Shown here one piece after another: positions 41,335 to 42,332 of a stretch of DNA of 64,000 bases. The translations under genes and the position numbers were made by a program. The number at the start of each line of letters is the position of its first letter. The first letter of the stretch is position 1. Where the stretch lies: sequence record OL615011, one strand, 5' to 3'. Under the pieces are notes generated by a model, which was given only the letters and a program-made list of their open reading frames with translations, made no database searches and was not told the DNA's origin. Origin of the DNA: Shigella phage vB_SboS_Gloob.

Positions 41335-41345
41335 TTGTCAACTCC

Positions 41346-41353
41346 TATAAATA
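41346..41353 (+). promoter_or_regulatory. T4-type late promoter box TATAAATA
   Basis: exact TATAAATA 35 nt upstream of GTG start at 41388, with GGAG RBS between. Confidence 0.45.
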
Positions 41354-41387
41354 ACAACAGTTATCTTATTTAAGTGGAGTCCTCACC

Positions 41388-42332
41388 GTGGAAGACTATC
41401 GCAATTTTATCACACAGATGTTACAGCGGGGCTTGTCACGCAAGAACCGCTTCAGAGTGACCATCCCTCTGCCACCAGGGATCTTTGACTCCAATGCCAC
41501 TCTGGCTAATGACGGAAAGGCGTACAGCACCAATTCATCTTTCGGTGACTTGTTTAAGCAGTCAGCCCGTATTGTAAACGCTTTCTTTGGAGGGACAAAC
41601 CAGACTTCCCGTTCCCTTCAGATGATGTGTATGGTTGCCTCATTGCCAGGGGTTGGTATTGACACCACCCCAATGACGAACAACGGCAACCACATCAAGA
41701 TGCCGAACAACAAGTCCAACGTCGACCTCGACCTGTCATTCCTGTTGGCCAATGACTATTACGAGAAATCCGTAATGGACAAGTGGAAGAGTCTGATCTT
41801 TGATCCATACACTACCAAGATGGGCTATTACGAAGACTTCGTCACCGACATCTGCATTGAACAGCTTGATACTGAAGACCAGGTGGTTCACCGCGTCTAC
41901 ATCGTCGAGGCTCATCCGATCAACTTCAGTTCCATCGAGCTGGACAAAGGTGCCACCGATCAGTTCAACCAATACAACATCTCTTTCTCTTACAACAAAG
42001 TGCTCTCGGAGACAGAATATGAAACACGCAGCCTTTCCAGCGATTTTCTTCCTCTCGGTATTGCTGACGCTCTTACCAGTGGTGACTGGGAAACTGCGGC
42101 CTCAAAAGCCGGACAGCTTTATCGGAAAGTCAAAGAAGGAAACTTCACAGGAGAGGCTCTCCTGGCTTACAAACAGCTTGACCAACTTGTAAACAACCTG
42201 GCTGGGATCAGCCTACAGGACTTCGAGCGCATCTCGGTGGGTATCTCTCGTGACATCATGGGCAACGATAACCTGACGGCGGCGGAGAAGACAAACCTGT
42301 TGGGGATATTGCAAGACGTGATGGGCAAATAA
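41388..42332 (+). CDS. putative virion structural protein (possibly baseplate wedge)
   Basis: late-promoter-like box upstream; divergent arrangement resembling T4 gene 4 / gene 53 junction. Confidence 0.5.
   Translation: MEDYRNFITQMLQRGLSRKNRFRVTIPLPPGIFDSNATLANDGKAYSTNSSFGDLFKQSARIVNAFFGGTNQTSRSLQMMCMVASLPGVGIDTTPMTNNGNHIKMPNNKSNVDLDLSFLLANDYYEKSVMDKWKSLIFDPYTTKMGYYEDFVTDICIEQLDTEDQVVHRVYIVEAHPINFSSIELDKGATDQFNQYNISFSYNKVLSETEYETRSLSSDFLPLGIADALTSGDWETAASKAGQLYRKVKEGNFTGEALLAYKQLDQLVNNLAGISLQDFERISVGISRDIMGNDNLTAAEKTNLLGILQDVMGK

Follow-up and report, generated by a model that had tools for sequence, protein, structure and literature searches.

Late promoters of bacteriophage T4 provide the closest described parallel to the locus analyzed here. 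The T4 late box occupies positions −13 to −6 (PMC1524935), the stretch leading from the box to the start point is A/T-rich (PMC2988020), and the unwound region of the promoter spans −12 to +2, with the adenine at −12 flipped into a pocket by T4 gp55 (PMC7892883). A late promoter variant, CTAAATA, is known from Aeromonas phage Aeh1 (PMC1524935), and the motif CTAAATAcCcc has already been published for the ViI-like phages, or Ackermannviridae (PMC7283392); the Aeh1 and Ackermannviridae motifs have the TAAATA core in common. In the CBA120 paper of 2011, the late recognition sequence of this family was still described as unidentified, and we found no mapped transcript 5′ ends for Ackermannviridae or Kuttervirus in the literature.

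Two late boxes face each other in T4 at the junction of genes 4 and 53, where the spacer (NC_000866 77338-77384) reads ctcct-TATAAATA-gataata-TATTTATA-aacaggagg, with 7 nt between the boxes. For the Ackermannviridae, the phiSboM-AG3 paper lists a putative late promoter 'Porf072', tctttgccatttgtcaactcctataaata (PMC3121705, Table S2), which is the plus-strand box described below, and the LIMEstone1 record NC_019925 annotates the TAAATA orthologous to our minus-strand box as a 'putative late promoter'. Each of these two sources names one of the two boxes. Porf072 was named after the minus-strand orf072 (gp2), yet it faces orf073 (gp54).

The DNA analyzed here, which we refer to as the window, is a 64 kb stretch of a ViI-like phage (genus Agtrevirus of the Ackermannviridae). 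Its sequence shows 97-99% identity with those of the Shigella phages Ag3 and ChubbyThor and the Salmonella phages SKML-39 and SW16-7, and it is collinear with Ag3 from position 1 to ~63.7 kb of the latter. A spacer of 53 bp separates two diverging virion genes, gp2 on the minus strand and gp54 on the plus strand, and the features at this junction are as follows.

40630 to 41334, minus strand: gp2, DNA end protector, 234 aa (phrog_429 'DNA end protector', E=8e-68; Gp2 in Ag3 orf072)
41342 to 41346, minus strand: AGGAG, ribosome-binding site of gp2; the ATG at 41334 follows after 7 nt (read from the sequence)
41346 to 41353, plus strand: TATAAATA, putative late-promoter box for gp54 (core TAAATA at 41348-41353; −13 to −6 in T4 numbering)
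41358 to 41361, both strands: predicted transcription starts, A41359 on the plus strand for gp54 and A41361 on the minus strand for gp2 (T4 rule, box ending at −6)
41367 to 41374, minus strand: cTTAAATA, putative late-promoter box for gp2 (core TAAATA from 41372 to 41367; distance to the gp2 ATG, 32 nt)
41376 to 41379, plus strand: GGAG, ribosome-binding site of gp54; the GTG at 41388 follows after 8 nt (sequence and alignment)
41388 to 42332, plus strand: gp54, baseplate tail-tube initiator, 314 aa, GTG start (phrog_3629, E=3e-177, residues 1-313)
42334 to 42353, no strand assigned: GC-rich hairpin in the convergent gp54/gp32 gap, terminator-like on the minus strand (terminators are annotated on both strands in Ag3)

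When the sequence was re-read, the first-pass annotation of this junction proved correct in all its coordinates (the plus-strand box, the GGAG, the GTG, the minus-strand AGGAG and the ATG); the gap between the box and the GTG on the plus strand is 34 nt. The same annotation had assigned the remainder of the spacer to ribosome-binding sites only and overlooked the minus-strand box (41374 to 41367), which stands on the plus strand as TATTTAAG (41367-41374). An assignment of the flanking genes as gp4 and gp53 is ruled out, the phrog profiles and the Ag3 annotation giving gp2 and gp54. The AGGAG of gp2, CTCCT on the plus strand, overlaps the plus-strand box by one base (T41346) and is kept in the enterobacterial relatives included in the junction alignment. 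The gp54 start codon is GTG in enterobacterial, Serratia and Erwinia relatives and ATG in Vibrio and Aeromonas relatives, and the codons directly 3′ of the GTG differ mostly by synonymous, third-position changes. At the other end of gp54, the hairpin lacks a T-run on the plus strand. Shortly downstream of gp54 come the genes for gp32 and for gp33, the late co-activator, and an FmdB-like zinc ribbon (43989-44234) is found among the small putative regulators of the window. Judged against the Ag3 annotation, the open reading frames at 43776-44189 (plus strand) and 47360-47521 (minus strand) are spurious calls.

The layout has much in common with the T4 4/53 junction: a spacer of ~50 bp separates two divergent late virion genes, each strand carries a box that adjoins the ribosome-binding site of the opposite gene, and the predicted starts lie between the boxes. 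The genes themselves, however, are not orthologous, being gp2 and gp54 here; in T4, gp2 is encoded on the strand of gp4 and downstream of it. A likeness to T4 4/53 had been proposed for this locus, and it holds for the architecture, with a late box on each strand, but not for gene identity. The spacing between the cores also differs, 13 nt here against 7 nt in T4, so that the predicted 5′ ends would overlap by ~3 nt rather than lie ~3 nt apart. Taken singly, the boxes resemble T4 late promoters in being −10-type boxes of 8 bp that lack a −35 element and precede the starts of virion genes by 25-35 nt. The plus-strand box matches the T4 late consensus at 8/8 positions and is followed by ACAAC (3/5 A/T); the minus-strand box matches it at 6/8, with the core intact, and is followed by AGATA (4/5 A/T). 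TTGTCA at 41335-41340 was considered as a −35 element and rejected, lying only 5 nt from the box and thus too close.

The same twin layout recurs within the window at the junction of gp4 with gp48-gp53.

19172 to 19786, minus strand: gp4 (phrog_218)
19787 to 19836, no strand assigned: gp4/gp48 spacer, second twin module (plus-strand box cCTAAATA, core at 19797-19802; minus-strand box cTTAAATA, core from 19824 to 19819)
19837 onwards, plus strand: gp48 (gp48-gp53 onwards; phrog_230)

Its box-to-start distances of 34 and 32 nt are identical to those of the gp54/gp2 pair. The twin layout thus occurs once in T4, at 4/53, and twice in this phage, and at gp2/gp54 it is present family-wide.

In the window, neither TATAAATA nor TAAATA is more abundant than chance would give, and placement alone is informative. 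Exact TATAAATA occurs twice in the 64 kb, against 0.48 copies expected, and two or more copies arise in 12 of 100 shuffles; its one-mismatch variants number 13 (18.5 expected), and TAAATA is present in 15 copies (11.5 expected). Placement was assessed in the annotated genome of Ag3 (158 kb, 97% identical), using windows that run, in the orientation of each gene, from 18 to 55 nt before its start codon. Intergenic DNA makes up 7.6% of that genome and holds 30 of its 44 TAAATA copies. With 26 of the 44 copies in the upstream windows, TAAATA stands at the top of all 4096 hexamers (53-fold, hypergeometric p=1.3e-39), whereas no A4T2 hexamer of matched composition exceeds 8 copies in these windows. 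The hexamer lies 23-46 nt upstream of gp48, gp4, gp54, gp2, gp5, gp22, gp18, gp14, gp6, the tailspikes and other structural genes, and a box is present at 13 of the 28 late genes but at only 2 of the 32 early ones (Fisher p=0.0004).

A consensus derived de novo from 24 Ag3 sites, with the gp2/gp54 junction left out, reads (a/c)CTAAATAcC(c/t)(c/t) and so reproduces the published family motif; the Ag3-derived family matrix has no conserved positions upstream of −13. Unlike the late promoters of T4, the putative ones of this lineage have only the TAAATA core fixed, usually carry C at −12 and are C-rich 3′ of the box, where T4 is A/T-rich. At −12, the gp54 box has A and the gp2 box has T, and at several major late genes position −8 is G or T. 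The junction boxes, which read ctaTAAATAacaa and actTAAATAagat, have TAAATA alone in common with CTAAATAcCcc and depart from the full 11-mer; relative to the family motif they are minority variants, in which A or T replaces the C at −12 and the core is not followed by cC. When all ~316,000 positions of Ag3 are scored with a matrix trained without either junction box, the plus-strand box ranks 27th and the minus-strand box 43rd.

The first-pass annotation had put weight on the exact match to TATAAATA. Exact TATAAATA is a minority variant in this lineage, with only 4 copies in the 158 kb of Ag3, and its exactness carries no special weight because the lineage consensus is CTAAATAcC and TATAAATA is rare. 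What upholds the plus-strand late promoter is its T4-type position, orientation and sequence, its conservation and the presence of gp33 in the window; the exact 8-mer had been weighted too heavily.

Conservation sets the two boxes apart from the DNA between them. In an alignment of the junction from 10 genomes of six genera, two near-invariant blocks flank a variable spacer of 13 nt, with 5/6 and 6/6 invariant columns in the plus- and minus-strand cores compared with 3/13 in the spacer. Seven of the eight columns of the plus-strand box are invariant, and within the otherwise variable spacer C41358 and A41359 are invariant as well. A scan of IMG/VR with gp54 recovered close relatives only (≥88% identity), and distant ones were found by tblastn against GenBank phages. 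The 20 IMG/VR relatives represent 8 distinct junction sequences, all of which contain the minus-strand core. The plus-strand box is kept in every junction type from IMG/VR except the Limestonevirus type, which has TATAAGTA. The G variant (CTAAGTA) is also found upstream of the major capsid gene gp23 of Ag3, and by sequence the Limestonevirus box may still be functional; because Limestonevirus carries TATAAGTA, this comparison indicates that the exact core at the gp54 box is not indispensable.

More distant members of the Ackermannviridae extend this picture. Identity of gp54 falls to 56% in Erwinia phage Bue1, 33% in Vibrio phage 207E48.1 and 30% in Aeromonas phage phiA8-29, and all three keep the divergent gp2/gp54 arrangement with a spacer of 46-49 bp. 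Their cores read TATAAATA...TATTTAA in Bue1, TTTAAATA...TATTTAGG in 207E48.1 and CCTAAATA...TATTTAGC in phiA8-29, so TAAATA is present on both strands in each, and the remaining spacer is unalignable. Both cores are conserved over eight Ackermannviridae genera, and of the sequence comparisons made here these three distant phages are the strongest evidence for conservation.

Among the phage factors that T4 uses for late transcription, one is encoded in the window itself.

43751 to 43996, minus strand: gp33, late-transcription co-activator (Trans_coact family PF16805 of Pfam at E=1.2e-18, scoring 67 bits where the cutoff is 25; phrog_254)

Neither gp55 nor gp45 lies within the 64 kb window. A check for a gp55-like sigma factor, which the first-pass annotation had proposed, thus turned up no candidate inside the window and a homolog in the near-identical Ag3 genome: in this collinear, 97% identical phage, gp55 and gp45 homologs are located at 70.5 kb and 93 kb. 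Ag3 orf122 matches phrog_234 (E=7e-52), the same family that T4 gp55 matches (E=3e-69), and Ag3 orf165 matches the sliding-clamp family phrog_223 (E=2e-64). The PHROG profile is the sole link between the Ag3 and T4 gp55 proteins, which show no pairwise similarity by BLASTP (E=95); a search of Pfam with Ag3 gp55 gave no match, and a search of PDB sequences gave only spurious matches to FtsZ (E=0.2). T4 gp55 reads −12 and −8 as flipped adenines; its residue Y97 belongs to the −12 pocket, and T99, H95 and N13 to the pockets for −8 and −9 (PMC7892883). Judging from the boxes, the gp55 homolog of this lineage appears to accept any of C, A and T at −12 and either G or T at −8; if so, its recognition pocket would be built differently from that of T4 gp55. 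The DNA of ViI-like phages contains hypermodified thymidines, and the pocket of the homolog may act on modified DNA.

Since gp2 and gp54 diverge, both genes must have a promoter of their own within the spacer or close to it. We consider it likely that the spacer contains two interdigitated T4-type late promoters, one per strand, and the twin pair is real, conserved and probably functional. Host RNA polymerase carrying a phage sigma factor of the gp55 family would read TATAAATA (41346-41353, plus strand) and start near A41359, giving a monocistronic gp54 mRNA of ~1 kb that would have a leader of 29 nt and end at the hairpin at 42334-42353. The same form of the polymerase would read cTTAAATA (41374 to 41367, minus strand), initiate near A41361 and produce a leftward gp2 transcript with a leader of 27 nt. 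Neither promoter would require a −35 element. By analogy to T4, gp33 and the gp45 sliding clamp would boost both, coupling expression to DNA replication. At the predicted plus-strand start, the invariant C41358 and A41359 fit a pyrimidine/purine start dinucleotide.

Each box would then lie inside the first ~15 transcribed bases of the opposite gene, and the regions expected to be unwound (−12 to +2) would abut at 41360, so that a polymerase bound at one promoter would occlude the other. On a single DNA molecule, gp2 and gp54 would be fired alternately rather than simultaneously. The boxes with their placement and orientation, their conservation, the link of the core to late genes across the genome and the genes for the factors are observed; the start points, the dependence on gp55, gp33 and gp45, and the mutual exclusion we infer from the T4 system and the geometry of the spacer. 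Neither predicted leader shows significant structure (folding z=−0.6 and +1.4), nor does the spacer as a whole, and a role for RNA structure at this locus was rejected.

Other explanations of the two boxes can be weighed against this evidence. The plus-strand TATAAATA might be the only promoter of the two, with gp2 transcribed from a promoter inside gp54 or from one of another type, and TATTTAA conserved for a different reason connected with the gp54 leader or its translation. The minus-strand box is indeed the weaker match of the two (43rd against 27th), it departs from the T4 consensus at −13 and −12, and, immediately preceding the gp54 GGAG, it could serve as an AU-rich translational enhancer. 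Its core is nevertheless the more conserved of the two, being invariant in all six columns and present in 30 of 30 genomes, and it is kept in the Vibrio and Aeromonas relatives despite differing neighboring bases. The distance of 32 nt to the gp2 ATG is the same as that of the gp4 box, and the authors of LIMEstone1 marked the box on this strand as the late promoter. As for a promoter of another type, a scan of 40500-42500 found no sigma70-like promoter in the spacer; its lone match, a weak one (9/12) on the minus strand inside gp54 (41598-41571), is at the level of shuffled sequence, with one found against 1.6 expected. We regard a single plus-strand promoter as quite unlikely. Very unlikely, in our view, is that the A/T-rich blocks are kept as unstructured AU-rich RNA leaders, bound by ribosomal S1 or by a RegA repressor, with transcription starting elsewhere. 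The complement of each box is AU-rich and adjoins the Shine-Dalgarno sequence of the other gene, so the conservation could be partly translational; the predicted leaders are unstructured, and Ag3 encodes a RegA homolog (orf162). AU-richness, however, would not fix a single oriented hexamer, as the contrast between TAAATA and its composition-matched controls (26 copies against at most 8) illustrates, and the divergent genes would still need promoters, no others being detectable in the spacer. An AU-rich leader role could also exist alongside promoter function.

The spacer can also be read as an imperfect inverted repeat, TAAATAA-11 nt-TTATTTA (41348-41372), that acts on both genes as the operator of a dimeric regulator or as a cruciform. 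The boxes do form a perfect inverted repeat of 7 bp, the arms pair weakly in a single-strand fold (−7.2 kcal/mol, z=−1.2), and the window encodes small putative regulators, the FmdB-like zinc ribbon included. The predicted fold is not significant, though, and single copies of TAAATA precede more than 20 other genes. The core-to-core distance varies, from 13 nt here to 16 nt at gp4/gp48, 10 nt in the Vibrio and Aeromonas phages and 7 nt in T4, whereas each box stays ~26-34 nt away from its own start codon across these junctions. This combination of variable core spacing and steady box-start distance points to two independently positioned promoters rather than to a dimeric operator, and makes the operator or cruciform reading highly improbable. 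The counts of TATAAATA, of its one-mismatch variants and of TAAATA in the window are all within shuffle expectation, as functionless A/T-rich sequence arising by chance would predict. Against this stand the placement of the boxes, their association with late genes and their conservation over eight genera in otherwise diverged spacers. Comparative sequence data effectively refute the chance reading, and we give it almost no credence.

Two late promoters of the T4 type, one on each strand, thus remain our preferred interpretation of the junction. A late promoter at gp2/gp54 is ordinary, and already known in kind and place, and its significance beyond annotation is little. The result supports the use of a T4-style late signal by ViI-like phages at this junction. 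What is added here is the pairing of the boxes, their conservation across the family, the parallels with T4 4/53 and gp4/gp48, and quantitative support. The strand and gene assignment of 'Porf072' in the Ag3 paper is corrected to orf073 (gp54), and both directions are shown to have a box of their own. For late-promoter searches in Ackermannviridae, we advise the core TAAATA/CTAAnTA in oriented windows from −20 to −50, given that a search with the exact T4 8-mer yields only 4 sites in 158 kb and that one with the full 11-mer would overlook both gp2/gp54 boxes. Because the twin layout is conserved family-wide, the gp2/gp54 and gp4/gp48 junctions are convenient targets for the first mapping of late 5′ ends, or for reporter tests, in this family. 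A more speculative and rather unlikely extension is that the twin promoter is an ancient, selected module whose two directions are mutually exclusive, the choice between them being made by the direction of arrival of a tracking gp45 clamp, according to the polarity of the replication fork or nick. If this were true, the ratio of head-completion/DNA-end protein to baseplate protein would be tied to the geometry of replication.

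The true gp4/gp48/gp53 junction of the phage is a second site with twin late boxes in the window.

19172-19786, minus strand: gp4 head-completion homolog
19787-19836, both strands: twin late boxes at the true gp4/gp48/gp53 junction
19837-20805, plus strand: gp48

The plus-strand box reads cCTAAATA and the minus-strand box cTTAAATA, with cores 16 nt apart, and their distances to the start codons (34 and 32 nt) are those found at gp2/gp54. The gp4 homolog matches the Pfam family Tn7_TnsA-like_N, an endonuclease fold (E=1.1e-17), which agrees with T4 gp4 having been called a head completion nuclease. 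Erwinia phage Bue1, Vibrio phage 207E48.1, and Aeromonas phage phiA8-29 all have gp2(-) and gp54(+) in this order, separated by 46-49 bp, and the arrangement persists down to 30% gp54 identity. A gp32-type gene comes next after gp54 in Bue1 and 207E48.1. The gp54 start codon is GTG in enterobacterial, Serratia, and Erwinia phages and ATG in Vibrio and Aeromonas phages.

A late box is also combined with a hairpin upstream of the endolysin gene.

55535-56329, minus strand: endolysin gene
56320-56375, minus strand: hairpin and late box 5' of the endolysin gene
56367 to 56360, minus strand: late box TTTAAATA, overlapping the hairpin 5' arm

The 13-bp hairpin (-18 kcal/mol, z=-6.2) was equaled in stability by none of 200 shuffled sequences, and it base-pairs the endolysin GGAGG ribosome-binding site with the 5' arm that overlaps the box. 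In an RNA begun at the predicted late start, G56354, the hairpin is gone (-5.3 kcal/mol, z=-0.4). The endolysin arrangement is similar to that of the T4 lysozyme gene e, for which the only translatable transcripts are those from late promoters. In the near-identical, collinear relative Ag3, the same box-plus-hairpin design lies 5' of o174, the o210 tailspike gene, o213, and o227.

Two further kinds of palindrome contain promoter-like elements.

45123-45173, both strands: perfect palindrome GTAAATAGCCCATAC...GTATGGGCTATTTAC
27651-27705, 29436-29489, 38392-38465, and 54503-54587, minus strand: TATAAT boxes in short palindromes

The first, with TAAATA on each strand, adjoins a RuvC-like resolvase gene (44532-45122), 38 nt away, and could be either a bidirectional terminator or a hairpin into which a late box has been merged. 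The palindromic TATAAT boxes (for example, GCTGCTATAATAGCAGC) stand 5' of early or nucleotide-metabolism gene blocks. They are probably members of the published family motif TTCAAT[N14]TATAAT; TATAAT ranks third among upstream hexamers in Ag3, where one of the four sites carries an extended -10 annotation.

The window lacks the Ag3 homing endonuclease orf096 (Ag3 55663-56355), and small-gene content differs at three further sites.

55461-55464, 15184-16085, 16982-17283, and 25346-26223: indel differences from Ag3

The late sigma factors of Ag3 and T4 differ in length.

Ag3 orf122 (L011 20479-21270, minus strand): 263 aa
T4 gene 55 (L035 3601-4158, minus strand): 185 aa

No pairwise similarity between the two proteins was detectable (BLASTP E=95), and orf122 had no match among Pfam and PDB sequences; both proteins match phrog_234 strongly. 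Major late genes of Ag3 without an exact TAAATA have, equally far upstream, a variant that differs from it by one base.

CTAAGTA: 5' of gp23, Ag3 (L012)
CTAATTA: 5' of gp19 and gp20, Ag3 (L012)
CAAAATA: 5' of gp3, Ag3 (L011)

Whereas T4 gp55 reads -8 as a flipped adenine, G or T occupies this position upstream of gp23, gp19, and gp20, and position -8 seems to be tolerant in the Ag3 lineage.
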